Part shown: positions 2,491 to 26,908 of the stretch, one piece after another | How the letters are laid out: the number at the start of each line of letters is the position of its first letter | Numbering within the stretch: the first letter of the stretch is position 1 | Assembly (NCBI GenBank): GCA_964587175.1 | Contig: CAZPKK010000017.1 | Coordinates: forward strand, 1-26,908 | DNA: 26,908 nucleotides | Reading direction: 5' to 3' | From: an uncultured Clostridium sp. | GTDB lineage: Bacteria; Bacillota; Clostridia; TANB77; CAG-508 | Translations under genes and position numbers: made by a program | Notes under the pieces: model-generated | The model's database searches: none | Told to the model about the DNA's origin: nothing | The model's input: the letters and a program-made list of their open reading frames with translations, nothing else

Positions 2491-3393
2491 TTAACTTAAA
2501 TTATTTCTTGGATTAAATGTTGAAATCTGTTTAAATTTCTGAAAAATATCCATTTCCTCTTTTGTTGGTGTTTTAGGTATCATAATTTTTACTTCTGCTA
2601 TTAATTCTCCTCTTCCACCTTTTCCATCTTTATATCCTTTTTCTGGAATTTTTACTTTTTCTCCACTTTCAATTCCTTGCGGAATATGTAAAAAGATTGT
2701 TTCACCAATTGTATCTACTGATACTTTTGTTCCTAGTGCGGCTTCCCATGGGGTAATTTTTAAATCCGTATATAAATCTATACCTTTAAGAATATATTTT
2801 TTGTCGTTCTTTATGTTTATTTTTATTAATAAGTCTCCGTTCTTTCCGCCATTCTCTCCTTTTTTCCCTTGTCCTATTAGTCTTATTTTTTCACCATTTC
2901 TTATTCCTGCTGGTATTTTTATTGTAAAGGTTTTCATTTTGCCATTTTGTGCTCTTAAAGAAATTTTTTTATCTAAACCATAAAAAGCCTCTTCTATAGA
3001 TACATCTATTTCTGTCTCTATATTCTCACCTTTTACTGCAACTTTTTCTTTACTTTTCTTTGGTTTTGCTGTGTTATTTTCATTCTGCTCCCCAAAAAAC
3101 ATATTAAAAAAATTGCTGAAAATAGAACCATCTTCTCTTTTACTTTCTTCAAACTTCTTTTTTCTACCAATATTAGAATTCCACATTCTGTCATATTTTC
3201 TTCTAGACGCTGGAGTTGAAAGAACTTTATATGCTTCATTTATATCTTTAAATCTTTCTTCTGAAAAATAACTTTCGGAATTTATGTCTGGATGATATTT
3301 TTTTGCTTGCTCTCTATATGCTGTTTTTATCTCTTCTGACGTAGACTTGTTATCTTCTAAACCAAGAATTTTATAATAGTCTTTAAAAATCAT
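2491..3393 (-). CDS. J-domain co-chaperone with a DnaJ C-terminal domain but no zinc finger (CbpA-like)
   Basis: N-terminal sequence DYYKILGL...AYREQAKKYHPDIN contains the HPD motif. The C-terminal half resembles DnaJ_C beta domains (GENIETEIDVSIEEAFYG, GEKIRLIGQGKKG). No CxxCxGxG repeats are present. Confidence 0.85.
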   Translation of the reverse strand: MIFKDYYKILGLEDNKSTSEEIKTAYREQAKKYHPDINSESYFSEERFKDINEAYKVLSTPASRRKYDRMWNSNIGRKKKFEESKREDGSIFSNFFNMFFGEQNENNTAKPKKSKEKVAVKGENIETEIDVSIEEAFYGLDKKISLRAQNGKMKTFTIKIPAGIRNGEKIRLIGQGKKGENGGKNGDLLIKINIKNDKKYILKGIDLYTDLKITPWEAALGTKVSVDTIGETIFLHIPQGIESGEKVKIPEKGYKDGKGGRGELIAEVKIMIPKTPTKEEMDIFQKFKQISTFNPRNNLS

Positions 3394-3527: not shown

Positions 3528-4151
3528 TTAATTGATCAAAATCTCTTTGATTAATTTGTTTCTAGTTAAAATGCTGTCCATATGAATTAATTTCTTCTTT
3601 TTAATTGTATAAGCTAATGAAGAGTCGATCTCATACAACACAGCCTTATTCAGGTTTTTTAAAGCCATTTGTCTAATTTTATCTAACTCCAAGTTTTTCT
3701 CTTCATCGTCTTTATAAATTCTTCCATCTTCAATTTTATCTGCTACAAAAATAACCTTTGCAAGCAAATCCATATTTTCATTTCCTGTTGTATGATACTT
3801 TATTGCATTCTGCATTTCCTCATCAAAACCATATCTTTTTTTGCAAATGTCTGCACCAATTTTTCCATGAAGTAGACCTACATTAATTTGTTCCACTTCA
3901 TCTACCTCAATATTATTCTGTTTAGCATATTTTAACTTTTCCTCTTCTGGAATTTCTTTTGCAATATCGTGTGCCAAGCCAACTAACTTCGCCTTGTTAA
4001 TATCCACACTATATATTTCTGCAAGTTCTTCTGCTTTTTTCATTACTCCTAGAGAATGTTTATATCTTTTTTCTGATAATTCTCTTTTTACATCTTTATC
4101 TATTTTTTGTAACAAATCTTCCTCTTCTTTATTATTTTTAAAATCCATCAT
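3528..4151 (-). CDS. yqeK: HD-domain hydrolase, YqeK-type bis(5'-nucleosyl)-tetraphosphatase
   Basis: RYKHSLGV...LAHDIAKE HD motifs, about 200 aa, and an overall YqeK-like layout. RBS aaggaagga. Confidence 0.8.
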   Translation of the reverse strand: MMDFKNNKEEEDLLQKIDKDVKRELSEKRYKHSLGVMKKAEELAEIYSVDINKAKLVGLAHDIAKEIPEEEKLKYAKQNNIEVDEVEQINVGLLHGKIGADICKKRYGFDEEMQNAIKYHTTGNENMDLLAKVIFVADKIEDGRIYKDDEEKNLELDKIRQMALKNLNKAVLYEIDSSLAYTIKKKKLIHMDSILTRNKLIKEILIN

Positions 4152-4169: not shown

Positions 4170-5231
4170 CTATTTTGAAAAAGATAATTCAATTAAGCTA
4201 TCTAATAATTTTGAATAGCTTACACCTACTTCTTCCCATAATTTTGGATACATACTTATTTGCGTAAAACCGGGCATTGTATTTATTTCATTAATTAATA
4301 CTGTGTTCGTATTATTCTCTATGAAAAAGTCAACCCTTGAAAGCCCACTTCCATCTGTTGCCTTAAATGCCTTTATCGCAGTTTCTCTTATTTCATTTGA
4401 TACATTTTCTGGAATATCTGCTGGAATTACTACTCTAGACTCAGCATTCTTATACTTCGCATCAAAAGTGTAAAACTCCTCTGCTGGCAATATTTCCCCT
4501 ACACAAGAGGCTAATGGATGACTATTGCCTAATACTGCACATTCAACTTCTCTTCCTTTGATTTCTTCTTCTATTAAAATCTTATCATCATATAAAGATG
4601 CAGATGTTACAGTTTCTATCAATTCTCTTTCATTATGTGCTTTTCCTATTCCCACAGAAGAACCAGAATTCGATGGCTTTACAAACACTGGGTATGAAAG
4701 CTCCTCTTTCACCAATTTAGCAATCTCTTCAATCTCATATTCTTTTTCATTAAATTCTTTATCTATCTTTACAAATCTATCTCCTCTTCTTTTTATATAA
4801 ACATACTTTGCTTGAGGTATCTTCGCTCTGTCAAATATAATTTTTGCATATACTTTATCCATACAAATGCTTGAGCTTAATACTCCACATCCAACATAAG
4901 GTTTATTTAATAATTCCAACATTCCTTGTATTGTACCATCTTCCCCATATAGTCCATGTAGTACTGGAAATACCACATCACATTTTTTCAAATATTCTAT
5001 TGGATTTAGTATCTCACTTTTTTCCTCTATTTTTTCTCCTACTTCTAAAACATCTATATTTTCCAACTTTTTAGTATATTCAAACCAATCTCCATTTTTT
5101 GCAATATAAATCGGATAAATATTATATTTCTCTTTATCAAGATTTTTTATAACTGAGGTTCCTGATGTAATTGACACGTCATGCTCTGTTGACATTCCAC
5201 CAAATATAACACCTAATTTTAATTTTTGCAT
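4170..5231 (-). CDS. ddl: D-alanine--D-alanine ligase
   Basis: GVIFGGMSTEHDVSITSG, HGLYGEDGTIQG, an ATP-grasp core and NEINTMPGFT. RBS aaggagga. Confidence 0.95.
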   Translation of the reverse strand: MQKLKLGVIFGGMSTEHDVSITSGTSVIKNLDKEKYNIYPIYIAKNGDWFEYTKKLENIDVLEVGEKIEEKSEILNPIEYLKKCDVVFPVLHGLYGEDGTIQGMLELLNKPYVGCGVLSSSICMDKVYAKIIFDRAKIPQAKYVYIKRRGDRFVKIDKEFNEKEYEIEEIAKLVKEELSYPVFVKPSNSGSSVGIGKAHNERELIETVTSASLYDDKILIEEEIKGREVECAVLGNSHPLASCVGEILPAEEFYTFDAKYKNAESRVVIPADIPENVSNEIRETAIKAFKATDGSGLSRVDFFIENNTNTVLINEINTMPGFTQISMYPKLWEEVGVSYSKLLDSLIELSFSK

Positions 5232-5280
5232 AATATCAAATCCTCCTTAATAGACGTTCTTCGTTTGCGTCAATTTGCAA

Positions 5281-6690
5281 TTATTCACAAATCGCATTAA
5301 ATATTTCTTGAAAATTCAATCTATTTGAAGCTTTTAAAAGCACTGCATCACCTTTACTTGCTTTTTCTTTCAATAGCTTTATTGCCTCACTATTATCCTT
5401 ACAAACATATACATCTTTTTCATTCTTTCCTTGTTTTACTGCTGTTTCAGCAATATATTTTGCTAAATCTCCTACGGTTATCAAAAGTTCAATATTATTT
5501 TTTGCAACCTCCTCTCCCACTTTTTCATGTAATACTTTTGAAAAATCACCTAGTTCCAGCATATCTCCAAGCACCGCAATTTTTTTATTTGCATTTATTT
5601 TTCCTAAGTACTCTATACCTGCTTTCATCGAATCATAATTCGCATTATAACAGTCATTTATAATAGTTAGACCATTCTTTGTTTTTTCTAATTGCATTCT
5701 CCTTTTAGTAAGTTCAAAGTCAGCAATTCCTTTTAATATATCACTCATGTCTATATCAAACAAATTTCCAATCGCAATCGCACATAAACTATTTAGCACA
5801 AAATGATTTCCACCAACAGGAATATTAACATCATACGTTTTTCCATTAACATCTATCTTATATGTACTCCCTTTTTCTGATGTAACTATATTATGTGGCA
5901 TAATATCGCTTTTGTTTTCCATTCCAAAAGTCACGACTTTGAAGTTTTCACTACTTTTTTCTTTGTTCCACTTATAAAGTAAATCATTATCATTATTTAT
6001 TACTAAAACACCATCTTTTTGTATGCCATCTAATATTTCTAACTTTGCTTTTAAAATATTTTCTCTTGAGCCCAAATTTCCTATATGTGCTGTTCCAACA
6101 TTTGTAATGACAGCAACTGTGGGTTTTGCAATCTTTGTTAAATTACTTATTTCTCCTTTTTGATTCATTCCCATCTCAATAACCATTACTTCATGGTTTT
6201 TGAGTCTTAAGATAGTAAGAGGAAGACCTATTTGATTATTATAGTTTCCAAGAGTCTTTAGTGTGTTATACTTTTTAGACATCACACTTGCAATAATATC
6301 TTTTGTGCTTGTCTTTCCTGCACTTCCCGTTACTCCAATTACAGGAATATCATATAAGTCTCTTTTGTATCCAGCTAGTTTCTGTAATGCTTTTATTGAA
6401 TCTTCTACTAAGATTATAGTAATATTTTTATATTTTTCTTTTAGTTCTTCAATATTCATATTATTTTCTATACTAAATTTCTGCAAAATACAAACTTTGG
6501 CACCATTTTTTATTGCAGCATCGTATAGCAAATTCCCATCATGATTCTCTCCTTTTATTCCTATATATACATATCCTTCCTTCACTTCCCTTGTGTCCTG
6601 AGTAAAATCTTCTAAAATTTCATTTTCATCACCACAAATTATTTGCCCATTACATATTTTTTCCACATCTTTTGCAATTATTTTCTTCAT
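5281..6690 (-). CDS. murF: UDP-N-acetylmuramoyl-tripeptide--D-alanyl-D-alanine ligase
   Basis: Mur-ligase P-loop GVTGSAGKTSTKD, DCYNANYDSM, a length of 469 aa, and a position directly upstream of ddl. Confidence 0.93.
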   Translation of the reverse strand: MKKIIAKDVEKICNGQIICGDENEILEDFTQDTREVKEGYVYIGIKGENHDGNLLYDAAIKNGAKVCILQKFSIENNMNIEELKEKYKNITIILVEDSIKALQKLAGYKRDLYDIPVIGVTGSAGKTSTKDIIASVMSKKYNTLKTLGNYNNQIGLPLTILRLKNHEVMVIEMGMNQKGEISNLTKIAKPTVAVITNVGTAHIGNLGSRENILKAKLEILDGIQKDGVLVINNDNDLLYKWNKEKSSENFKVVTFGMENKSDIMPHNIVTSEKGSTYKIDVNGKTYDVNIPVGGNHFVLNSLCAIAIGNLFDIDMSDILKGIADFELTKRRMQLEKTKNGLTIINDCYNANYDSMKAGIEYLGKINANKKIAVLGDMLELGDFSKVLHEKVGEEVAKNNIELLITVGDLAKYIAETAVKQGKNEKDVYVCKDNSEAIKLLKEKASKGDAVLLKASNRLNFQEIFNAICE

Positions 6691-9884: not shown

Positions 9885-9960
9885 GCGCCATTAGCTCAGT
9901 TGGTAGAGCAGTTGACTCTTAATCAAATGGTCGGAGGTTCGAATCCTCTATGGCGCACCA
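9885..9960 (+). tRNA. tRNA-Lys (anticodon CUU)
   Basis: Cloverleaf folded by hand: acceptor gcgccat/atggcgc, D arm gctc..gagc, anticodon loop ctCTTaa, T arm ggagg-ttcgaat-cctct, encoded CCA. Confidence 0.93.
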
Positions 9961-11455: not shown

Positions 11456-13033
11456 CTAATATATATAATACACTGTACTTAACCATAATCTTGTAATATC
11501 ATCGCAATTATTATATCCTAATGCATTTTTTATGGTTTCTATTATACTATCATTATCTTGTCCATCATTTATAAAAACAATAATTCCATTTGAAACATCT
11601 TTTCCTTCTAATATATTTTGTATATTTTCTTCTGTACAATCCATATCTTTTGCAATATACGATTCATCTATTTTGGAAAACAATAAAATATCATTTAGGA
11701 ATCCTGATGTTTCTGATTTATAGATATATATTGTTGGTAGATTCAATTCTGTGCTCAATTTTTCTACTATTTGCTTTTTTTCTGCATATAAAAGCTCTGG
11801 CTCCATATTAAATATTAATGGTGAAACTAAAACAAAGCAAAGCAATATAATAATTAATATGTTTACTGTTTTTTCTTTAAATATGTTCTGTATTACTTTA
11901 TATAAACAATATATTACTATAATAAATATAAGTCCACATACTGGTACAATATATCTTAAAACATTCCAAGGCGAAGCTATTGAAGCAATTATAAAGAAAA
12001 ATAGAGATGGTATTATAATAATTTCTAAAATATCTTTTTTATCTTTGTCTAATTTGTTTAATCTCTTTTTTCTTATTTTTATAAATATTAAAGATATTAT
12101 TATGATTGCTAAAATGGTATATAGCAAGTTGTTAAAACCATAATAATTTAAGTTATGCATCTGCTCTTTCATACTTGGTAATATTTGACTGATTTTTTCA
12201 AGTTTACTTATTACGCTCTGCCCTCTATATCCAAAAAACATATGCTGTATTGAATATGGGAATATAAGTAATGATACCCCACCTGCAATAAGCATTGTTA
12301 ATGTATAAAATAAAGCTTCTTTTTTTCTTTTTGCTTTAATATATTTTATTAAAAATACTATATACAAAACTGCTAAATAAAATAAATAATAATAGTGTGT
12401 TAGTACTCCTGTAAGTACAGAACTTCCAATTCCAATTAATAGTTTAATATCCAGTTTTTCTTTTTCTAATAGCTTTATATGTAAAAAAGTAATTATCAAT
12501 ACTTCTAATGTTAAAAGTGAATACATTCTAATGTATATAACATTGCTTAAGCTTGCCAATACTATTGAAGAAACAAAAGCTAAAACGGCTGATTTTACTT
12601 CTGCATTTTTTTCATTTTTTAATAATTTCTTTAATATTAGATACATGAAAATTGTAACAAAAGCATATATTATTATATTTAATCCAAAGCCTGACCATTT
12701 AGAAAAGTGTCCTTGAGTAATAGTCATTGCAATTCTTAAGAAAAGATAATAAAGAGGCGGGTGGACATCATTTTTTTGATTTTCATATACTGGTGTCCAA
12801 TCTCCTACTTCATCCTCTTGCAATGATAAATAATCTTCATAGTATTCTTTGTTGTGCCAATTATCAAAGAAATCTTCATTGTCTGTTATCTCTATTTTGT
12901 CATAATTTGTTAGTCCAAAAGAATATGCTTCATCTATATGTAAATATGGTTTATTTACTCCAACAAAAATATATATTACCGTTTGCAAAATTAATAATAT
13001 TAATAATACTATTAATCTCTTTTTGCTTTTCAT
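11456..13033 (-). CDS. GT-C fold membrane glycosyltransferase (GT39/ArnT/PMT-like)
   Basis: Roughly 11-13 hydrophobic helices, HIDEAYS in the first loop, an HPPLYY motif, and a soluble C-terminal domain. The start is set at ATG 13033 (RBS agagggga) instead of the longest ORF, which would overlap VanW. Confidence 0.7.
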   Translation of the reverse strand: MKSKKRLIVLLILLILQTVIYIFVGVNKPYLHIDEAYSFGLTNYDKIEITDNEDFFDNWHNKEYYEDYLSLQEDEVGDWTPVYENQKNDVHPPLYYLFLRIAMTITQGHFSKWSGFGLNIIIYAFVTIFMYLILKKLLKNEKNAEVKSAVLAFVSSIVLASLSNVIYIRMYSLLTLEVLIITFLHIKLLEKEKLDIKLLIGIGSSVLTGVLTHYYYLFYLAVLYIVFLIKYIKAKRKKEALFYTLTMLIAGGVSLLIFPYSIQHMFFGYRGQSVISKLEKISQILPSMKEQMHNLNYYGFNNLLYTILAIIIISLIFIKIRKKRLNKLDKDKKDILEIIIIPSLFFFIIASIASPWNVLRYIVPVCGLIFIIVIYCLYKVIQNIFKEKTVNILIIILLCFVLVSPLIFNMEPELLYAEKKQIVEKLSTELNLPTIYIYKSETSGFLNDILLFSKIDESYIAKDMDCTEENIQNILEGKDVSNGIIVFINDGQDNDSIIETIKNALGYNNCDDITRLWLSTVYYIY

Positions 13034-13070
13034 TTGAATATCCCCTCTTTTAGTTATATACCATTTTTTG

Positions 13071-14885
13071 TTATGTTTCTTCTGTAGTATTGCTTTCTTC
13101 ATCATTTGTATCATCTTGACTAGTAGTTTCTTCTTCTTTTTCTACCTTTTTTGTTCCTCTTCTTATTATTCTTGTCATTGGATTATATGTATCTTTTGAT
13201 AGTAATGTTTTTGAAACCACTTCACCATTTAATTTAAGTATTCTATATGCTTCGCTTGTGCAACCATTATATCCTGATTGTTCAACTTCTTCTTTTCCCT
13301 CTTCTAATGTTGAATCATTTTCATATTGAGTTGTATATGATATATATGAAAGTACATTGGATTGAATTACAACCTCGTATTCTGTTTCTTCTTCTATTCC
13401 ATATATACTCATTGTACATACTCCGTTTTTTACTGTTGCTACAATTTTTATAGGATATGTTCTAGTGTTCTTGAATTTAAAATCTATAGAACCCCATGCA
13501 ACTGTTGCATCTCTTCCAGCATCAACATATGATGTTAAAAATTGATGATTACTTCTTTCCACAATTTCTAAATTTGCTAGTAATACTGCATTATATAATG
13601 TCGAAGAGGTTTGACAAATACCTCCTCCTACATCTTGCACTACCTTTCCTCCGGCATATGCTCCCGCTTCCTTATATCCTGCTTCTATTGTTCTTTCACC
13701 TACTGTTTGATTGTATGAAAATGTCTCTCCTGGCATAATAATTGTTCCATTTATTTTTTCTGCAGATATTTCCAAATTATTACTTCTATTTGTATTAGTA
13801 GGATCATATCTTGTAGTATATGTTGCAAGTTCATCTGGAAATGCTTCTTCTCCTAAATCTTCAAGTGTTTTATCTGGTATTGTAATTTCTAATGGTATAA
13901 CATATTCTTCTTTGTCTTCTGCTATTATTTTCTCTGCCTCTTCCATTGATATTGCAAAATCCACTCCATTTACATGTGTATGGACTTCTGTTTTTCCTGT
14001 TTCTTCATTTGTTGATACATAGGCATCTTGTGGTTCTTTATATATTTCGCTCCTTATTTGTTCTAAGTCTATTTCTGCTGGTTCTACGATTTCAGTAGGA
14101 ATTTCAATTAGTGCATATTTATTATTTATATCTTTAATTTCTTCTATAATGATTTCTTTTAACTCATCTTTTTTTATAGATAATCCTTCATTTCCTCTTA
14201 CTATTATTAGGTTTTCGTCTTCTATATAATAACTATTTTCTACTACTGTACCTGGTAATTTTGAAGAAATATCATTTATCTTCTCTTCTAATTCTTCATC
14301 ATTGTAATTTAAATCACAATCAATTTCTCTTCCGAATATTATAGTATATAAAATATTATAATTATTTGATATAATATTTCCATTTCTTCCAATATTATAT
14401 GCCTCACTTACTGCTGTTTCCACATCAAATGAAGCCTCTATCTGACTAGCACTTAGTGTGGTTTCATAATCATCTTTTTTTAGTGTCATTTCTTCTGAAA
14501 GTTTTGCGTTGATTATTTCATTGATTTCCTCTTTTGCTTCTTCTTTAGTCATATTGCTAATGTCTATACCCATTATTGTAATATTTCCTAATATTTTTTC
14601 ATTGTTTATATTAACTAGAGCAAAAACAATAGATAATATTATCAATATTATAATTAACGCAGAAATTATAATAACAGGAACTTTAATGTTTTTTCTTGGC
14701 TTTCTTTCGTTTTTCTTGATTTCTTTTTTATTTTCTATTGTATTTTTTTCTGGTTCATTTTTATTTTCAATCTTTCCTGCATCAGTTTCTTTATTAATTA
14801 TTTCTGTATTTCCTTCTTTTTTATTGTTTTTTTCTTCTATTTCTTTGTTTTCTATTTTTTCCTTTTTTGATTCATTTTCAATCAT
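13071..14885 (-). CDS. VanW-family protein with a Lys/Glu/Asn-rich N-terminal tail, one TM helix and a C-terminal G5-like region
   Basis: VanW core FSYNQTVGERTIEAGYKEAGAYAGGKVVQDVGGGICQTSSTLYNAVLLANLEIVERSNH...DATVAWGSIDFKFKN. The TM helix is VPVIIISALIIILIILSIVFALV. Confidence 0.88.
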   Translation of the reverse strand: MIENESKKEKIENKEIEEKNNKKEGNTEIINKETDAGKIENKNEPEKNTIENKKEIKKNERKPRKNIKVPVIIISALIIILIILSIVFALVNINNEKILGNITIMGIDISNMTKEEAKEEINEIINAKLSEEMTLKKDDYETTLSASQIEASFDVETAVSEAYNIGRNGNIISNNYNILYTIIFGREIDCDLNYNDEELEEKINDISSKLPGTVVENSYYIEDENLIIVRGNEGLSIKKDELKEIIIEEIKDINNKYALIEIPTEIVEPAEIDLEQIRSEIYKEPQDAYVSTNEETGKTEVHTHVNGVDFAISMEEAEKIIAEDKEEYVIPLEITIPDKTLEDLGEEAFPDELATYTTRYDPTNTNRSNNLEISAEKINGTIIMPGETFSYNQTVGERTIEAGYKEAGAYAGGKVVQDVGGGICQTSSTLYNAVLLANLEIVERSNHQFLTSYVDAGRDATVAWGSIDFKFKNTRTYPIKIVATVKNGVCTMSIYGIEEETEYEVVIQSNVLSYISYTTQYENDSTLEEGKEEVEQSGYNGCTSEAYRILKLNGEVVSKTLLSKDTYNPMTRIIRRGTKKVEKEEETTSQDDTNDEESNTTEET

Positions 14886-17238: not shown

Positions 17239-17314
<76 letters not shown>

Positions 17315-17318
17315 ATTT

Positions 17319-17393
17319 TGGTGACCCCGACGGGAATCGAACCCATGTCTCCGCCGTGAAAGGGCGATGTCTTAACCGCTTGACCACGGGGCC
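17319..17393 (-). tRNA. tRNA-Glu (anticodon UUC)
   Basis: Reverse complement ggccccgtggtcaagcggttaagaca...ctTTCac...gggttcgattccc...cca. Confidence 0.92.
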
Positions 17394-17433
17394 TTGTTAC
17401 TAGGGCTTTTTTTGCTAAGTCCTAGATGTTTTT

Positions 17434-17509
17434 TGGTGAGCCATCGCGGATTCGAACCGCGGACAACTTGATTAAAAGTCAAGTGCTCTACCACCTGAGC
17501 TAATGACCC
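17434..17509 (-). tRNA. tRNA-Lys (anticodon UUU)
   Basis: Reverse complement gggtcattagctcaggtggtagagc...ctTTTaa...gcggttcgaatccgc...cca. Confidence 0.92.
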
Positions 17510-18205: not shown

Positions 18206-19888
18206 TTGTTTTCTGATATTTTTTATTCAAACTCAGTAATTATTACATATGGAATTCAGCCTTTCGATATTTGCATTCAGAACCCTGAATTATGGAAATA
18301 TATAAAAATAGTATTTTTTATTACATATATTTTTTCTTCTTTTGTTATTTCGAATTTCTTATTTTTTGTGTTTTCTTTATTTTTCAGAAAAACAATTAGA
18401 ATTTTTGACAAGTTTTTCTCTAAATTAAAAGTCAAAAAAAATAATTACACAAATAAAAAGCAAAAAAATATTTTACCAAAAAAAGATTTATCTATTTTTG
18501 TTGGAAATGATTTTGAAAAAAATCTTCCGATTTATTTGCCAGAAAAGAGTTTATATCAAAATGTTTTAATTACAGGAACTATAGGTACTGGAAAAACAAG
18601 TAGTGCAATGTACCCATTCACTAAGCAATTAATAGAATATTACTGCGAAAATAATTTACGAAAAATAGGAATGCTTGTGTTGGATGTAAAAGGAAATTAT
18701 TATAGAAAAGTATCTGAATTTGCGAAAAATTGTGGCAGAGAAAATGATTTAATTATAATTAGTCTTGGTGGAAAATATAAGTATAATCCACTTCATAAAC
18801 CAAATTTAAAACCATCTGTTATAGCAAATAGATTAAAAAGTATCTTGCTTTTATTTTCTCCAAATAATTCTGAGTCTTATTGGTTAGATAAAGTAGAACA
18901 AGTTTTAACAGAATGTATTAAATTATGTAGGTTATATAATAATGGATATGTTACTTTTGAAGAAATACATAAATTAATTTCAGTTGATAATTATTACACA
19001 GAAAAAATAGAAATATTACGAGATAAATTCGTAAAAAATGAATTTTCAAAAGAGGATATATATAATTTACTCTCTTCTTTAACCTTTTTTCAAAAAGAAT
19101 TTTTTTCTTTAGATTTACGTACTCTATCTATTTTAAAATCTGAAATCACCCGAATAACTAATGTATTTGTTTCTGATTATGAAATTTATAAAACCTTTAA
19201 CCTTAAAGCAGAAGAGTTAAATTTTTATGGATTTGAAGATTTAATAAACAAAGGAAAAATAGTTGTACTTAATATGAATATTTCCGAATATAAAATTTTA
19301 TCTAAAATAATAGCAACATATTTAAAATTAGATTTCCAAACAGAAGTAATGGCAAGACTCTCAAATAACTTTCTAAACTCTACTAGAACAGTTGCTTTTA
19401 TTTCAGATGAATATCATGAATATTGTACTATTTCTGACAGTGAATTTTATGCTCAAAGTAGAGAGGCAAAATGTATTAATATAGTAGCAACTCAAAGCTA
19501 TACTTCTCTTTTGAATGCTTTAGATAATAAATATTCTGTAGAGGTAATTATTCAAAATTTGGTAAATAAATTTTGGTTTAGAACTGATGATATTTTTACA
19601 ATTGAAATTGTGCAGAAGCAAATTGGTAAAGAGGATAAAGAAAAATTGTTAAAAAGCATTTCAGAAAATGCAAAAGAAACAAACTATAGTTATATTTCCA
19701 ACTCATTAAATTCAACAGATTCTAGTATTTCCGAGAGTATTAGTAAACAAGTTTATTTTGAATATGTTTATGACACAAAATTTTTTACACAAGAATTAGA
19801 AAATTTTTGTGCTCTTTCTTTTTTATCTGATGGAAGTAAAATTCTAAAGCCACAAAAGATTAGGCTCAAGCCTTATTTTGAAAAATAA
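18206..19888 (+). CDS. T4SS coupling-protein-like P-loop NTPase (TraD/TraG/VirD4-type) with an N-terminal TM region
   Basis: Walker A is LITGTIGTGKTSS. Walker B is VAFISDEYHEY, followed by AQSREAKCINIVATQSYTSL (the T4CP-like R...Q...L pattern). A hydrophobic N-terminus is present. The true start may lie upstream at about 18146 (see findings). Confidence 0.55.
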   Translation: MFSDIFYSNSVIITYGIQPFDICIQNPELWKYIKIVFFITYIFSSFVISNFLFFVFSLFFRKTIRIFDKFFSKLKVKKNNYTNKKQKNILPKKDLSIFVGNDFEKNLPIYLPEKSLYQNVLITGTIGTGKTSSAMYPFTKQLIEYYCENNLRKIGMLVLDVKGNYYRKVSEFAKNCGRENDLIIISLGGKYKYNPLHKPNLKPSVIANRLKSILLLFSPNNSESYWLDKVEQVLTECIKLCRLYNNGYVTFEEIHKLISVDNYYTEKIEILRDKFVKNEFSKEDIYNLLSSLTFFQKEFFSLDLRTLSILKSEITRITNVFVSDYEIYKTFNLKAEELNFYGFEDLINKGKIVVLNMNISEYKILSKIIATYLKLDFQTEVMARLSNNFLNSTRTVAFISDEYHEYCTISDSEFYAQSREAKCINIVATQSYTSLLNALDNKYSVEVIIQNLVNKFWFRTDDIFTIEIVQKQIGKEDKEKLLKSISENAKETNYSYISNSLNSTDSSISESISKQVYFEYVYDTKFFTQELENFCALSFLSDGSKILKPQKIRLKPYFEK

Positions 19889-19911
19889 ATTATATTTTAA
19901 GGAGGTACTTT

Positions 19912-20262
19912 ATGAAAAAACAAAAAATCAAATTTTTTTTTATTTTTATTTCATTTTTATTATTTATTTTATTTTTTACTTTTTCTATCCCTCAAGTTTT
20001 CGCTGGACTTTTTGATAGCACTCCTGAACTAGTATCTGTTTTAAATTCAGCTTTTGAAGATATTGAAGGTTGGCTTTTAACATTAGCCACCCCTGCCGCC
20101 GCTGTTGCTGTTGGAGTTGGTGTTTTTATGAAAAAATTTAGTTTTGGTGATGAAGAAAGAATTAAAACAGCAAAAAAATTGATTAGAGGATCATTATTTT
20201 CTTATGGTTTTATTCTTGCAATTAATTTAATTTTGTCTGCAATTCAGTCTTTAATTTCTTAA
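19912..20262 (+). CDS. VirB2/TrbC-like pilin-type small membrane protein
   Basis: Lys-rich n-region, then a hydrophobic signal sequence ending VFA|G. An Ala/Gly-rich helix (LATPAAAVAVGVGVFM) and a second C-terminal helix follow. RBS aaggaggt. The call rests on topology and context, not on an alignment. Confidence 0.5.
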   Translation: MKKQKIKFFFIFISFLLFILFFTFSIPQVFAGLFDSTPELVSVLNSAFEDIEGWLLTLATPAAAVAVGVGVFMKKFSFGDEERIKTAKKLIRGSLFSYGFILAINLILSAIQSLIS

Positions 20263-20280
20263 TTTTAAGGAGGTGCATTT

Positions 20281-21174
20281 TTGGAAGAAGCAACTACAAA
20301 TATATCTAATATTACCCAAGTTATTGTTGATACTATTAATAATTTATTATCTACATTATTTTCTTCTGTAGATAATAGTGTTTATGAAACATTAGACGAT
20401 TTAGCATTTATTAATGTTAATTCTTTTGATTCTTATTTTTTTAATAATATTTTCGGAGATAATAACAGTAATGGATTAATAATAATAGCAAATGCTTTAT
20501 TATTAGCAGTATGTATTTATTATTGTTTTAAGTTAATGTATTCATATTTTACAGGTGCACAAATTGAAAGACCATATCAGTTTGTTTTTAAGCTATTGAT
20601 TTTCGGAATTGTTATAAATAGTAGTCATTTTATTTGTGAAGGATTAATTTATTATAATTCTGTTATTTCTGCAGCAATTCGCGATGTTGGGAAAGAGTTT
20701 TTTGGGCAAGAAATATGTTTTTCTAATCTGATACAAAATTTGAATTCTATTATATCCATAGATTCTACTAGTTTTAGTGTGTTTTCTTTTGATGGATTAT
20801 TAAAAAGCTTGATTTCCATTAGTTTTATTAATTTACTTTTTTCTTATTCATTAAGATATATAATGCTTCAAGTTCTCTGTTTTCTTACACCTTTTTCTTT
20901 TTTAACTTTAATAAATCAGTCAACTTCTAGTTTTTTCAAGGCATGGCTTAAAATATTTTTATCTTTGCTTTTTCTTCAAACCTTTATTTCAATTATATTG
21001 TTAATCATTTTTGCTTTAGACTTTACTGACTCGGATATTACTTCTAAACTTTTATGTATAGGTTCAATATATGCTTTAATTAGGGCAAATTCATATGTTC
21101 AACATTTTATTGGTGGTATTTCTACTAATGTTTCACAAAATTTTAGTTCACTAATTAAAGCTAATATGAGTTAA
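20281..21174 (+). CDS. VirB6/TrbL-like polytopic membrane protein
   Basis: About six hydrophobic helices. A TTG start lies 5 nt after aaggaggtg, and the gene sits between the VirB2-like and VirB3-like genes. Confidence 0.45.
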   Translation: MEEATTNISNITQVIVDTINNLLSTLFSSVDNSVYETLDDLAFINVNSFDSYFFNNIFGDNNSNGLIIIANALLLAVCIYYCFKLMYSYFTGAQIERPYQFVFKLLIFGIVINSSHFICEGLIYYNSVISAAIRDVGKEFFGQEICFSNLIQNLNSIISIDSTSFSVFSFDGLLKSLISISFINLLFSYSLRYIMLQVLCFLTPFSFLTLINQSTSSFFKAWLKIFLSLLFLQTFISIILLIIFALDFTDSDITSKLLCIGSIYALIRANSYVQHFIGGISTNVSQNFSSLIKANMS

Positions 21175-21189
21175 AATAGGAGGTTTTTT

Positions 21190-21483
21190 ATGAAATTTAT
21201 TTTTCCACAAAATTATAATTTTAATAGTAAGCTTTTTGGTTTTATTGATTACTCTACTTTAATACTAAATATATTATGGGGATTAATAGTCTTTTCTATT
21301 GTATATTTTTTTATTCCAAATATTACTTTTAAAGTAGCAGTATTTATTGTTTTATTTTTACCTTTTGCATTATTTAGTATTATTGGTTTTAATAATGAAA
21401 AAATGATATATATAATAGTATATATTTTTAAATATATTAAATGTCAAAAGATTTATCTATATACTAAAAAAAATCAATTTTAA
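21190..21483 (+). CDS. VirB3-like small membrane protein (TcpE/PrgI-type)
   Basis: 97 aa with two hydrophobic helices after a short polar N-terminus. RBS taggaggt. The size, topology and position are typical of Firmicutes VirB3 analogues. Confidence 0.45.
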   Translation: MKFIFPQNYNFNSKLFGFIDYSTLILNILWGLIVFSIVYFFIPNITFKVAVFIVLFLPFALFSIIGFNNEKMIYIIVYIFKYIKCQKIYLYTKKNQF

Positions 21484-21616: not shown

Positions 21617-22591
21617 ATGAAATTGGAAAATGCAGATTTATCATCATTATTTTCAAATACATTGTTACCAGATATATTTTTTTCTGAATATTTATCTGAA
21701 GCTAGTGGTGATTTTATAAAAGTATATTTATACATGGTATTTTTGTCTAAATATGAAAAAGATATAAAAATAAATGATTTATCTAAAAAATTAGTTCTCC
21801 CTGTAAAAACAATTCAAGATGCAGTTAAATATTGGGAAGATAAATGTTTAATTACTAAGAAAAATACTGGTTATATAATAAATAATATGCAAGAAATAGA
21901 ACTTCATAAATTATATAAACCAAAAACAGCTTTATCTGCAGAGCAACTACAAAAATCGGCCGAAAATCAAAAAAGAGCTAAAGCAATTGATTTTATTAAT
22001 AATAAATATTTTTCTGGTTTAATGCCTACTACTTGGTATCCAGAAATTGAGCTATGGTTTAAGAAATATAATTTCGACGAAGAAGTTATGATTGCTTTAT
22101 TTGGCTATTGTTTTGATAAATCTGCTTTACATAAAAATTATGTTCAAACTGTTGCAGAAGCATGGAATAAAAATAATATTAAAACTTTTAATGATTTAGA
22201 TGTTTATTATGAAAAACAAGAAAAAATAAATGTTATTGCTAAAAATATTTCTAAGAAATTAGGACTCTCTAGAGCTCTTACACAATATGAATATGCTTAT
22301 ATTGAAAAATGGATTATTGATTTTTGCTTTGGACTGGATATAATAGAAATAGCATTGAAAAGAACGACCTCTAAATCAAATCCTACTTTTGATTACTTGG
22401 ATAAACTATTAACAGATTGGCATGATAGAGGATTTAAAACAGTTAATGATGTGCAGAATTTCTTGGCAGAAATAAAAGAGAAAAATAAAAAAGTCAAAAA
22501 TCTTGAAAAACAAACTGGATATGATAAATATGATCAAAGAACTTATGATAATTTAGATAACTTATATGCAAATATAAAAAAGGTTAATTAG
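21617..22591 (+). CDS. DnaD-domain replication initiation/helicase-loading protein (Firmicutes DnaB/DnaD family)
   Basis: An N-terminal winged-helix-like region is followed by two DnaD-type repeats (YVQTVAEAWNKNNIKTFNDL and YLDKLLTDWHDRGFKTVNDV). It sits directly upstream of dnaI, as in the Bacillus dnaB-dnaI operon. Confidence 0.75.
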   Translation: MKLENADLSSLFSNTLLPDIFFSEYLSEASGDFIKVYLYMVFLSKYEKDIKINDLSKKLVLPVKTIQDAVKYWEDKCLITKKNTGYIINNMQEIELHKLYKPKTALSAEQLQKSAENQKRAKAIDFINNKYFSGLMPTTWYPEIELWFKKYNFDEEVMIALFGYCFDKSALHKNYVQTVAEAWNKNNIKTFNDLDVYYEKQEKINVIAKNISKKLGLSRALTQYEYAYIEKWIIDFCFGLDIIEIALKRTTSKSNPTFDYLDKLLTDWHDRGFKTVNDVQNFLAEIKEKNKKVKNLEKQTGYDKYDQRTYDNLDNLYANIKKVN

Positions 22592-23705: not shown

Positions 23706-26144
23706 TTATTTTTCTTCTTTATCTTCTGAAGAAATTGTTTCTATACTTACTACTTTTCCCTCATTAGTTCTCATTAAAGTTACTCCTTGTGTAGAACGAC
23801 CTAACACACTAATGTCTGAAACCTTTAATCTTATAATAGTTCCCGTATCTGTTATAAGCATCACATCTTCATCATCAGTTGCAATTCTAATTCCTACTAT
23901 ATTTCCTGTTTTAGGAGTTACCTTATATGTTATTACTCCTTTTCCTCCTCTAGTTTGTACTCTATATTCATCAAGTTCTGTTCTTTTTCCAAAACCATTT
24001 TCTGTTATTGCAAGAAGTGTACCTTTGCTTCCATTCACAATAGATTCCATACCAATTACAAAGTCTCCTTCATCAAGTCTAATGCCAATTACTCCTTGTG
24101 AAACTCTGCCCATTGGTCTTACGTCTTTTTCATCAAATGTAATACACATTCCTTTATGTGTTACTAATACTACATTATCTTCTCCATCTGTAAGCCTTAC
24201 ATCTATAAGTTCATCATCTTCTTTTAGTGTTATTCCAATTAGACCGCTTTTTCTTACAGAAATATATTCATTAAGCGATGTTTTCTTTATAATTCCATTT
24301 CTTGTTGCCATTAATAAATATTTTCCTTCTGCAAAATTAGCAATTGGAATAACTGCCGATATTTTTTCTCCTCCATCTAACATTAGAAGATTTACTATTG
24401 CTGTACCTTTAGCAGTCCTTCCTGCTTCTGGAATTTCATATCCTCTTAATCTATACACTTTTCCTTTATTACTAAAGAATAATATTGTATCATGTGTAGA
24501 ACAAGTAAATATTTCTTTTACAAAATCTTCTTCCCTTGTTGCAATTCCTGTTATTCCCTTTCCTCCTCTTTTTTGGCTTTTATATGTATCAATTGGCATC
24601 CTTTTTACATATCCAAAATGAGTTAAAGCAACAACACATTGTTCTTCTTTGATTAAGTCTTCTACATCAAATTCTCCTTCTGCCGCAACTATCTTTGTTT
24701 TTCTTTCATCTCCAAATTTGTCTTTAATTTCTAATAGTTCTTCTTTGATAATGTCATATACAAGCTTATCACTTGCAAGTATTGCTCTTAAATGTTCAAT
24801 TAATTTCATTAATTCTGCATATTCTTCTTCTATTTTTTCACGTTGCAAACCTGATAATGTTTTTAATCTCATATCTAATATTGCTTGTGCTTGTATATCA
24901 GAAAGACCAAATCTTTCCATTAATCTTTCCTTTGCATCATCATATGAATTTCTAATTATTTCAATTACTTCGTCAATATTGTCTAAAGCTATTTTTAATC
25001 CTTCTAAAATATGAGCTCTCGCCAAAGCCTTATCTAAATCAAACTGAGTTCTACGAAGGATTACTGTTTTTCTATGGTCTATATAGTATTCTAAACATTG
25101 TCTTAATGTTAATATTTTTGGTTCTCCATTAACCAATGCTAACATTATAATTCCAAAAGTATCTTGCATTTGAGTATATTTGTAAAGCTGATTTAAAATA
25201 ACTTGTGCATTTACATCTCTTTTCAATTCTACTACAACTCTTACTTTTTCTTCTCTGTCAGATTCATCTCTAACTTCTGAAATTCCTTCTACTTTTTTTT
25301 CTTTAACAAGATTTGCAATATGTTCAATAAGCTTTGCTTTATTTACTTGATATGGTAAAGATCTTACAACTATTCTTTGTTTATTTCCACTCATCTCTTC
25401 TATTTCAGCTTCTGCTCTCATTGTAACTTTTCCTTTACCAGTAGTATATGCTTGTTTTATTCCCTCTTTTCCTAAAATTAGTCCTTCTGTAGGAAAATCT
25501 GGACCTTTTATTATACTCATCAATTGTTCATCTGTTACATTGTCATCATCAATTATTTTAACAATGCCATTTACTACTTCTGTTAAATTATGTGGTGGTA
25601 TATTCGTAGCCATTCCTACTGCGATTCCTGAAGAACCATTTATTAATAGTGTTGGTATTTTAGATGGTAATACTGTTGGTTCTTGTAGTCTATCATCATA
25701 GTTAGGCATGAAATCAACTGTATTTTTTTCTATGTCTGTAAGCATTGTTTCAGCAATTTTTGACATTCTTGCTTCAGTATACCTCATAGCTGCTGGTGCG
25801 TCTCCATCAACAGATCCAAAATTTCCATGTCCATCTATTAATGGATATCTAAGTGAAAAATCTTGTGCCATTCTTACCATAGCATCATAAACAGATGCAT
25901 CTCCATGTGGATGATATCTTCCTAGAACAGAACCTACTGTGTTAGCACTTTTTCTATATGGCTTATCAGAGGTTATCCCATCTTCATACATAGCATATAA
26001 AATTCTTCTATGTACTGGTTTTAAACCATCTCTTACATCTGGAAGTGCACGAGAAACAATAACACTCATCGCATAATCTATATACGAATTTTTCATTTCT
26101 GTCTCTATGTTTCTTTCGATAATTTTTCCTTCATTTTCTTCCAT
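23706..26144 (-). CDS. gyrA: DNA gyrase subunit A
   Basis: [32 protein letters not shown] (the QRDR region), [10 protein letters not shown] (catalytic Tyr) and a GyrA-box QKRGGKG in the C-terminal domain. Length 812 aa. Confidence 0.95.
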
Positions 26145-26190
26145 TCTTATTATTCCGTCCTTTCAAAAATGTTCTAATAATTACTCTTGT

Positions 26191-26219
26191 ATTATACTAA
26201 AACTTCCTTTGTTTTGCAA
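26191..26219 (-). promoter_or_regulatory. Sigma-70-type promoter dedicated to gyrA
   Basis: The minus strand reads TTGCAA, a 17-nt spacer, then TATAAT, about 45 nt upstream of the gyrA ATG. Confidence 0.55.
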
Positions 26220-26221
26220 GC

Positions 26222-26252
26222 AAAAAGGGCTAATTCTTTTTTAAATTAGCCC
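26222..26252 (-). terminator. Rho-independent terminator of the VR-bearing gene
   Basis: Minus-strand stem gggctaatt/aattagccc followed by ttttt. Confidence 0.7.
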
Positions 26253-26278
26253 AAAGATTTAGATTAGAAAAATAAAAT

Positions 26279-26908
26279 TTATTTCATATTCCATAACGTG
26301 CATCCATCATATGTTTCTCCACTATCTGTAAGTGAGACATCAGACTCTAGAGAAACTACGGGACGGACGCCGCAATAGTCATTGCCCGTAGTGCCGTACG
26401 AGTAGTACAAGTCGCAACCGCCCACGCCGCCACGGTACACACCGCGCAACCCAAAGCCCGCATAGGAGGAGCCGGTACCGACATACGACGAGCCAAGCCA
26501 GTACCATACGCCATCAGTTGAGCCAGAACCGCCTGTATTAGCTCCTGTACTACTATTTGTGAATAACATCTTATATGCTGTACTTTCTGTTGAAATTCCT
26601 TCTGTTTGTCCATTATTGGAGTCTGTTAATGTGTTTGGATAGTACCAATAATAGTTGCTTTCTAGGGTTGTTATTTCTCCTGATTCACCAGTATCATATG
26701 CTGATGATTGCCAGCCTGATGCTGAATCATACCAATAGAAACTAAGATGAGTAGAACTTAATGTTCCTATTCGATCATTTGTTGCTTCATAATATATAAC
26801 ACCTGTTTCAAACCAATAATATGTTACTTTGTTTCCATATTCATATATGTAGCTTGCACCATATTTTGTGCCTGACCCTGTTTGCTCTGGGTCATATACT
26901 CCTACATT
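26279..26908 (-). CDS. Partial (5'-truncated by the window edge) Tyr/Trp/Gly-rich putative surface or ligand-binding protein with a hypervariable-type C-terminal cassette
   Basis: By hand translation the frame stays open from the stop at 26279 to the window edge: ...NVGVYDPEQTGSGTKYGASYIYEYGNKVTYYWFETGVIYYEATNDRIGTLSSTHLSFYWYDSASGWQSSAYDTGESGEITTLESNYYWYYPNTL...MLFTNSS.... The M at 26569 is internal, not the start. The C-terminus ends ...YCGVRPVVSLESDVSLTDSGETYDGCTLWNMK. Confidence 0.75.
   Translation of the reverse strand, partial: NVGVYDPEQTGSGTKYGASYIYEYGNKVTYYWFETGVIYYEATNDRIGTLSSTHLSFYWYDSASGWQSSAYDTGESGEITTLESNYYWYYPNTLTDSNNGQTEGISTESTAYKMLFTNSSTGANTGGSGSTDGVWYWLGSSYVGTGSSYAGFGLRGVYRGGVGGCDLYYSYGTTGNDYCGVRPVVSLESDVSLTDSGETYDGCTLWNMK
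26354..26533 (-). other. Candidate DGR variable region (VR) inside the 3' end of the partial CDS
   Basis: There is an abrupt switch to GC-rich, A-poor codons. By my count the Gly codons are 12 GGC, 4 GGT, 1 GGG and 0 GGA. Arg is CGN only, and Ser codons 26/27/33/34/56 in the core are TCG/TCC (two TCT/TCA Ser codons sit at the cassette's 5' margin). The boundaries are sharp and the 3' end is the G/C run gcggcgtccgtccc. See findings. Confidence 0.55.

Follow-up and report, generated by a model that had tools for sequence, protein, structure and literature searches.

Targeted hypermutation of proteins is known in prokaryotes, to our knowledge, only from diversity-generating retroelements (DGRs), and the highest density of them known is found in gut bacteria. 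The DGR of Treponema denticola (TvpA and its remote targets) has variable regions (VRs) at the 3' ends of surface-protein genes that are dispersed over the chromosome; a single cassette serves several of these targets, which lie far from the reverse transcriptase (RT) and vary in their presence between strains (Wu et al. 2018, PMC5758913). Remote targets and MutS-like (MSL) accessory genes are both documented features of DGRs, the latter being represented by the MSL gene of the Legionella pneumophila Corby DGR, which has architecture D (Wu et al. 2018, PMC5758913). Mtd of Bordetella phage BPP-1 illustrates the adenine-specific transfer from template repeat (TR) to VR, with NNY codons derived from AAY, a C-terminal VR that is followed by a short constant tail, and a 3' IMH (initiation of mutagenic homing) element that differs between VR and TR. 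Finally, DGRs act on type V pilus adhesins in Bacteroides (bioRxiv 10.1101/2024.11.15.621889).

The window, by which we mean the whole stretch of 26,908 nt analysed here, ends inside a gene whose 3' part holds a candidate VR. With the T. denticola DGR this locus and its family share VRs at the 3' ends of dispersed chromosomal genes for putative surface proteins, a single cassette that would serve several targets at a distance from the RT, and a strain-variable presence. It differs in that no cognate TR was found in the 26.9 kb, and in that the family, unlike TvpA with its C-type-lectin/FGE-type fold, has no CLec/FGE signature detectable by sequence or fold search. Two contigs on which we rely below, L012 (which carries a homolog of the window gene) and L059 (from a sister strain), contain small MutS_I ORFs, in line with the Corby DGR, and L012 also has a bAvd ORF beside its TR and RT, as do Corby-type MSL DGRs. 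Unlike in the Corby DGR, however, the two MSL ORFs of L012 are inverted and its RT is convergent on the TR, L059 has a 175-aa ORF at the avd site, and no MSL, avd, TR or RT gene was found in the window. The resemblance to BPP-1 lies in the adenine-specific TR-to-VR transfer (seen in L012), the AAY-derived NNY codons, the C-terminal VR with its short constant tail, and a 3' element that reads GTAGTTTCTCTA in VRs and GTAGCTTCTAAA in the TR; in contrast to BPP-1, the window target is a chromosomal gene and not a phage one, does not encode a tail fibre and has no CLec match, and a downstream hairpin is not conserved in its family. As in the Bacteroides systems, the host is a gut bacterium and the protein is putatively pilin-like or pilus-associated, but the host is an AT-rich, Clostridia-like Firmicute, the protein family is unrelated, and the N-terminus of the homologs resembles the type IV pilin methylation motif rather than a type V pilin.

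The features of the window to which the following text refers are these:
26279..>26908, minus strand: 3' part of the target gene, 209 codons plus the stop TAA at 26279-26281; the window ends before the N-terminal part
26354..26533, minus strand: GC-rich, adenine-poor patch of 180 nt, 61% GC, in which 12 of 17 Gly codons are GGC
26355..26500, minus strand: probable core variable region, homologous codon for codon with the L012 VR (3712-3857) and TR (4968-5113); it encodes WLGSSYVGTGSSYAGFGLRGVYRGGVGGCDLYYSYGTTGNDYCGVRPV
26348..26359, minus strand: IMH-like element GTAGTTTCTCTA, 12 nt, at the 3' edge of the VR
26227..26252, minus strand: terminator-like hairpin that would end the target gene transcript, followed by a gyrA promoter-like site
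23706..26144, minus strand: gyrA, adjoining the target gene

The GC content of the patch is 61.1%, against a mean of 28.1% (sd 5.8%) over all 180-nt windows of the 26.9 kb; the highest value outside the patch, 52.8%, is that of the tRNA cluster at 17239-17509. Its Gly codons are GGC (12), GGT (4) and GGG (1), with no GGA, while the 125 codons upstream in the same ORF have seven GGA, three GGT, two GGC and one GGG, and ten long window ORFs have 178 GGA, 61 GGT, 14 GGG and 12 GGC. The share of GGC among Gly codons is 71% in the patch versus 4.5% (12/265) in those ten other genes. All three Arg codons are CGN, and the Ser codons are TCG or TCC, a TCT and a TCA being confined to the 5' margin. An A occupies the third position in three of 60 codons (TCA, GTA and GTA) versus 61 of the 125 upstream, adenine makes up 11% of the coding strand of the patch versus 38% in the remainder of the target gene, and 14 of the 15 adenines in the 144-nt core sit at codon positions 1 or 2. 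Since third-position GC is 0.71 in the patch versus 0.21 in the rest of the gene, the shift is one of codons and not of amino acids alone. A preliminary description of this sequence had reported the same pattern, and everything countable in it (Gly counts, CGN Arg codons, Ser codons, third-position A) agrees with our recount; the distance from the patch to the stop, which it gave as about 25 codons, is 24.

A DGR with which this patch can be compared is found on contig L012, beside a gene for a protein (P0031) that is 40% identical to the window protein. The order there is target - MutS_I ORF - bAvd - TR - RT(-) - MutS_I ORF, and the 3' patch of the target gene recurs as a 155-nt repeat downstream of it, between bAvd and the RVT_1 gene. 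The VR (3712-3857) and the TR (4968-5113) agree at 122 of 146 positions; of the 24 mismatches, 23 are at adenines of the TR, and the sole exception is at the 3' boundary. The RT carries the motif IGAMTSQ, which we take to be the [ILV]GxxxSQ hallmark of DGR RTs. Within 4188-6672 of this contig, avd, TR and RT are flanked by the small MutS_I ORFs (4188-4628, plus strand; 6268-6672, minus strand), and the RT is encoded on the other strand, running towards the TR; the inverted MutS_I pair is unusual, though MSL accessory genes as such have been described.

The window patch aligns with the VR and the TR of L012 codon for codon and with zero indels. Its identity to the TR is 0.19 at the 42 adenine sites versus 0.67 at the 105 non-adenine sites (Fisher p = 1.6e-7). 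All 16 window codons that are homologous to AAY codons of the TR are of the form NNY (GGT, GGC, TCC, TAT, GGC, TAC, CGT, GGC, GGC, GGT, GAC, TAC, TAC, GGC, GGC and GAC), against a background NNY frequency of 0.45 (p = 2.6e-6), and the residues that they encode are G, S, Y, R and D. Over the same stretch, homologs of the window protein have a fixed scaffold, YWLGSxYVxTxxGxAxFGLRxVxxGxVxxxxLYxSxGxxxxxxxGVRPVV, in which the x positions are hypervariable. The designation of the patch as a DGR variable region is therefore well supported, with indel-free homology to a verified VR/TR pair, divergence at adenine sites, NNY codons at 16 of 16 positions and a fixed scaffold in homologs, and it is highly probable from this comparison of sequences that 26354-26533 was written by a DGR. 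The 33 nt of the 5' margin (26501-26533) are GC-enriched, yet lie outside the homologous TR-VR alignment.

At the other edge of the VR, seven family members share GTAGTTTCTCTA without a single nucleotide difference, even at synonymous sites, although their proteins have no more than ~40-64% identity. Each locus has one copy of the motif, invariably where the VR ends, and at the corresponding position the L012 TR reads GTAGCTTCTAAA. We infer that GTAGTTTCTCTA is the VR-specific part of an IMH-like element, with a putative role in initiating mutagenic homing. The preliminary description had likened the G/C run in which the cassette ends to IMH elements. A 3' element is indeed conserved here, but the G/C run is only a part of it, and the nucleotide-invariant part is GTAGTTTCTCTA. 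In the window, a hairpin can also be drawn at 26300-26356 (minus strand), where GTTTCTCTA, within the 3' motif, pairs with TGGAGAAAC some 35 nt downstream (z = -2.2). A BPP-1-style hairpin 3' of the VR was rejected as a family feature, since it has no counterpart in L012 (z = +0.9) or L063 (z = +0.6) and is not significant in L011 (z = -1.2).

Downstream of the target gene, the expectation of only a terminator and gyrA is borne out: the hairpin (26252-26227, minus strand) is followed by a gyrA promoter-like site and then by gyrA, and this hairpin leaves the window copy with no avd-TR-RT downstream of the target. Over the whole 26.9 kb, a repeat search and a low-stringency self-BLAST revealed no TR copy of the patch, and no RVT_1 or Avd match was obtained from Pfam for the 20 window ORFs scanned, in keeping with what had been stated before. 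The 20 were drawn from 39 listed ORFs of at least 80 aa and cover the evident genes, short nested or overlapping ORFs being left out. Among viral contigs, the 3' 16-mer was matched 44 times, in no case with extended similarity to the VR, and these matches are therefore taken as chance; neither the central scaffold pattern nor the family profile had a match there. Searches for TR-like DNA by blastn were negative in both phage and plasmid records, as was tblastn in phage records. One viral contig of 35% GC (IMG/VR 3300035670_000322) has the 16-mer GGCGTCCGTCCCGTAG twice, at 3276-3291 and 3993-4008, 717 nt apart; the contig shows no extended similarity to the window VR, and the pair may be an unrelated phage VR/TR that encodes the same GVRPV motif.

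The partial window protein has 36 metagenomic homologs, the closest of which (P0001/P0158) is 63% identical to it; no ortholog above 64% identity was found among 5.8 billion clusters, and nothing closer than distant relatives (L001 and L010) was recovered from genome and metagenome collections by the family profile. The family itself is large, with 2,703 clusters at 50% identity retrieved by an exhaustive profile search at E <= 1e-3 and 310 at E <= 1e-30. Full-length homologs of 340-440 aa begin with KGITLIALIITIVVLLILA and have a pilin-like hydrophobic helix at the N-terminus. Matches to N_methyl in P0031, P0036 and L001a are below the gathering score (E 0.001-0.4), the conserved pilin Glu5 is replaced by Ala in the homologs, and the AF2 model of P0031 has helices at 7-34 and 37-70. 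The partial window protein has no sequence match in Pfam, NCBIfam or PDB, and no Pfam model covers the VR-bearing domain of the ten family representatives that were scanned.

Of nine family loci examined, only that on L012 has an adjacent cassette, the other eight having no adjacent TR or RT, and in several samples paralogs are found at two or more different housekeeping loci. Remote or trans targets thus appear to be the norm for this family, which agrees with the earlier proposal that the cassette must act on the window gene from upstream or in trans. Sample ERZ28620187, for example, holds two paralogs at different loci. Contigs L068 and L070-L073, and the window itself (at 26908), break inside or just upstream of the target genes, a sign that N-terminal or central sequence may be repeated among paralogs. 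When L068 and L070, paralogs that come from the same sample, were compared as possible products of a shared TR, differences not of the adenine type were also seen, and one copy was frameshifted. VR-internal frameshifts occur at L008 4580-5176, at L001 20206-20492 (L001c), in L010 and at L068 915-1075; these may be pseudogenes, or assemblies that collapsed over heterogeneous VR reads.

A C-type-lectin fold, which the preliminary description had anticipated for the VR domain, is not supported. AF2 gave confident models, of pLDDT 85, both for the window fragment (pTM 0.77) and for full-length P0031 (pTM 0.73), and Foldseek detected no PDB or BFVD neighbour of either at E <= 1e-3; the best match was an IgA peptidase of Thomasclavelia ramosa (E = 7.6e-3, TM 0.22). 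A PDB profile search, Pfam and NCBIfam were all negative for a CLec/FGE signature, and hhalign against the Lcl_C-like (DUF1566-like) target of L059 gave a probability of 0.1. A very divergent CLec fold is possible on the basis of these models.

Judged by its GyrA, to which hundreds of contigs have a match of 94-96% identity, the window belongs to an abundant gut lineage; an exact match to this GyrA is not recorded, and the top GyrA match (P0037) was set aside as a misassembled internal duplication. Sister strains whose GyrA is 96% identical have the order dnaA-dnaN-recF-gyrB-[variable island]-gyrA, the island consisting of TraC-like and VirB4-like genes, two ORFs without assignment, and ParE. 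The interval between gyrB and gyrA, close to the origin of replication, thus varies between strains, and at this position (26145-26908) the window has the VR-bearing gene instead. As tblastn found no homolog of the target on the six sister-strain contigs (L057-L062), we regard the gene as a strain-specific insertion in the window. A different DGR, complete with RT, is present in two of these contigs (L059 19097-22445 and L062 13166-16635), some 7-10 kb away on the other side of gyrA. In L059 it comprises, in order, a MutS_I ORF, a 416-aa prepilin-like/fn3 target with a weak Lcl_C match, a 175-aa ORF that has no family match and sits where avd would be expected, the TR and the RT, and 21 of 22 mismatches between TR (21949-22073) and VR (21119-21243) are at A. 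This DGR, which neither the window nor L057 and L058 possess, is inserted beside the tRNA cluster. It was rejected as a source for the window VR, its TR being unrelated.

Copies of the VR in different family members can be placed along a gradient of composition, given here for each copy as VR GC and third-position A. The verified live VRs stand at 0.56/0.04 (L012) and 0.57/0.03 (L059), and the window VR, at 0.62/0.02, has the most extreme value observed, with both its ORF and its 3' motif intact. Across 15 sequence variants of the P0029/P0160 cluster, drawn from many samples, the VR-homologous segment does not vary except for a few scattered substitutions; this static copy stands at 0.39/0.28, with a third-position GC of 0.26, and it no longer has the 3' motif GTAGTTTCTCTA, the loss of which was seen in static copy L065. 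The VR of P0001/P0158 is identical on nine contigs from several cohorts, has no RT within 7 kb, and yet has 50% GC. It seems, therefore, that an orphaned VR can stay GC-rich for a time, and composition by itself is no proof of current activity. With that reservation, the place of a VR between the live and the static copies can serve as a simple proxy, obtainable from the sequence only, for how recently it has been rewritten.

These results lead to the question of how the patch came about and whether it is still being renewed. It is, on balance, probable that it is a VR which is still rewritten, or was until very recently, from a TR outside the window, either upstream in the gyrB-gyrA island or in trans. 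The VR homology, the site pattern and the live/static gradient are observed, while a cognate TR and RT would be expected in the source genome. That a sister lineage (GyrA 96% identical) has a bona fide DGR on another pilin-like protein counts in favour of a DGR; against a live one it counts that both verified cassettes (L012 and L059) have their TR and RT downstream of the target, where the window has a terminator and gyrA. It is possible, although we think this the less probable course, that the VR was written in an ancestor or donor and orphaned, by a move of the gene into the island or by loss of the cassette, so that it is now frozen and drifting towards host codons. The window has no cassette, with terminator and gyrA downstream, as this would predict; the family does include frozen copies (P0029/P0160 in 15 variants, P0001/P0158 on nine contigs) as well as frameshifted VRs (L008, L001c, L010 and L068), and a strain-specific gene without an ortholog above 64% identity fits a recent horizontal arrival, possibly without its cassette. 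The window VR itself, however, shows zero amelioration (third-position A 0.02, third-position GC 0.71), going beyond even the verified live VRs, and retains an intact ORF and 3' motif, so that the orphaning would need to be very recent.

Two readings dispense with a DGR altogether. Were the patch a tract recombined or horizontally acquired from a GC-rich donor, unrelated to retrohoming, an abrupt compositional boundary within the ORF and a strain-specific gene would be expected, and both are seen; but homologs from many AT-rich genomes have this patch too, delimited identically, and it coincides exactly with the segment homologous to the L012 TR, its divergence is specific to adenine sites, and no similar DNA was found in phage or plasmid collections. 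We hold such an origin to be very improbable. No more can be said for amino-acid composition or local translational selection, that is, for a Gly/Tyr/Ser-rich domain that happens on G/C-ending codons, which we rate lower still. A peptide rich in Gly, Tyr and Ser does raise GC at codon positions 1 and 2, but it leaves the third position (GC 0.71 versus 0.21) and the preference for GGC (71% versus 4.5%) to be accounted for, and the static homolog has the same scaffold with a third-position GC of 0.26. Since that homolog manages with host-like codons, the protein sequence does not require those of the patch, and the earlier argument that amino-acid composition alone cannot explain it is upheld.

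Under the favoured reading of a live or very recently live VR, TR RNA would be copied by a DGR reverse transcriptase together with Avd and, within this clade, MutS-like accessory proteins. Template adenines would be miscopied, converting AAY into NNY codons, and the cDNA would replace the VR, with the 3' element (the G/C-rich stretch plus GTAGTTTCTCTA) setting the direction of transfer. Repeated overwriting from the TR would also account for a VR that keeps the adenine-avoiding, G/C-ending codons of its TR and not the A/T-ending codons of the host. The predicted product is a pilin-like surface protein with a diversified C-terminal binding domain. The mechanism is the known DGR mechanism, unchanged; what is new is the target family, which is unannotated, pilin-like and without a neighbour in fold searches, together with the visible gradient that leads from live copies to fossil ones. 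A wider proposal, rather speculative and in our view doubtful, is that the family as a whole consists of pilin-like surface proteins from AT-rich gut Firmicutes which display a C-terminal, hitherto unrecognised non-C-type-lectin DGR scaffold on a pseudopilus or a fibre akin to a type IV pilus, the several paralogs dispersed over each genome being rewritten in trans by one MutS-like-associated DGR and their VRs passing from 60% GC when fresh to 39% as fossils.

For the detection of DGR targets, the locus illustrates that an adenine-purged island of G/C-ending codons in an AT-rich genome makes a VR recognisable from the raw sequence even where the cassette is remote. RT-anchored DGR finders, which are the standard, would overlook remote targets of this kind. 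The analysis also suggests that DGRs of Clostridia-like gut bacteria target a large family of pilin-like proteins which lacks annotation and whose VR domain had no match among solved structures or predicted viral ones.

Several other features of the window may be recorded here. T4SS-like genes lie beside DnaB_2/DnaC-like replication genes at 18206-21483 and are conserved in sister strains; they include a TrwB/TraG-type coupling protein (18206-19888), a weak T4SS-pilin-like ORF (19912-20262) and two ORFs without a family match, and the segment may be the remnant of an integrated conjugative element. A 552-aa ORF on the minus strand (11456-13114) has no Pfam match and a GC content of 20-26%, below that of its neighbours. 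Finally, an 80-nt inverted repeat of 85% complementarity (9885-9960 and 17434-17509) corresponds to two tRNA-Lys genes on opposite strands (anticodons CTT and TTT), the copy at 17434-17509 being adjoined by tRNA-Thr and tRNA-Glu.
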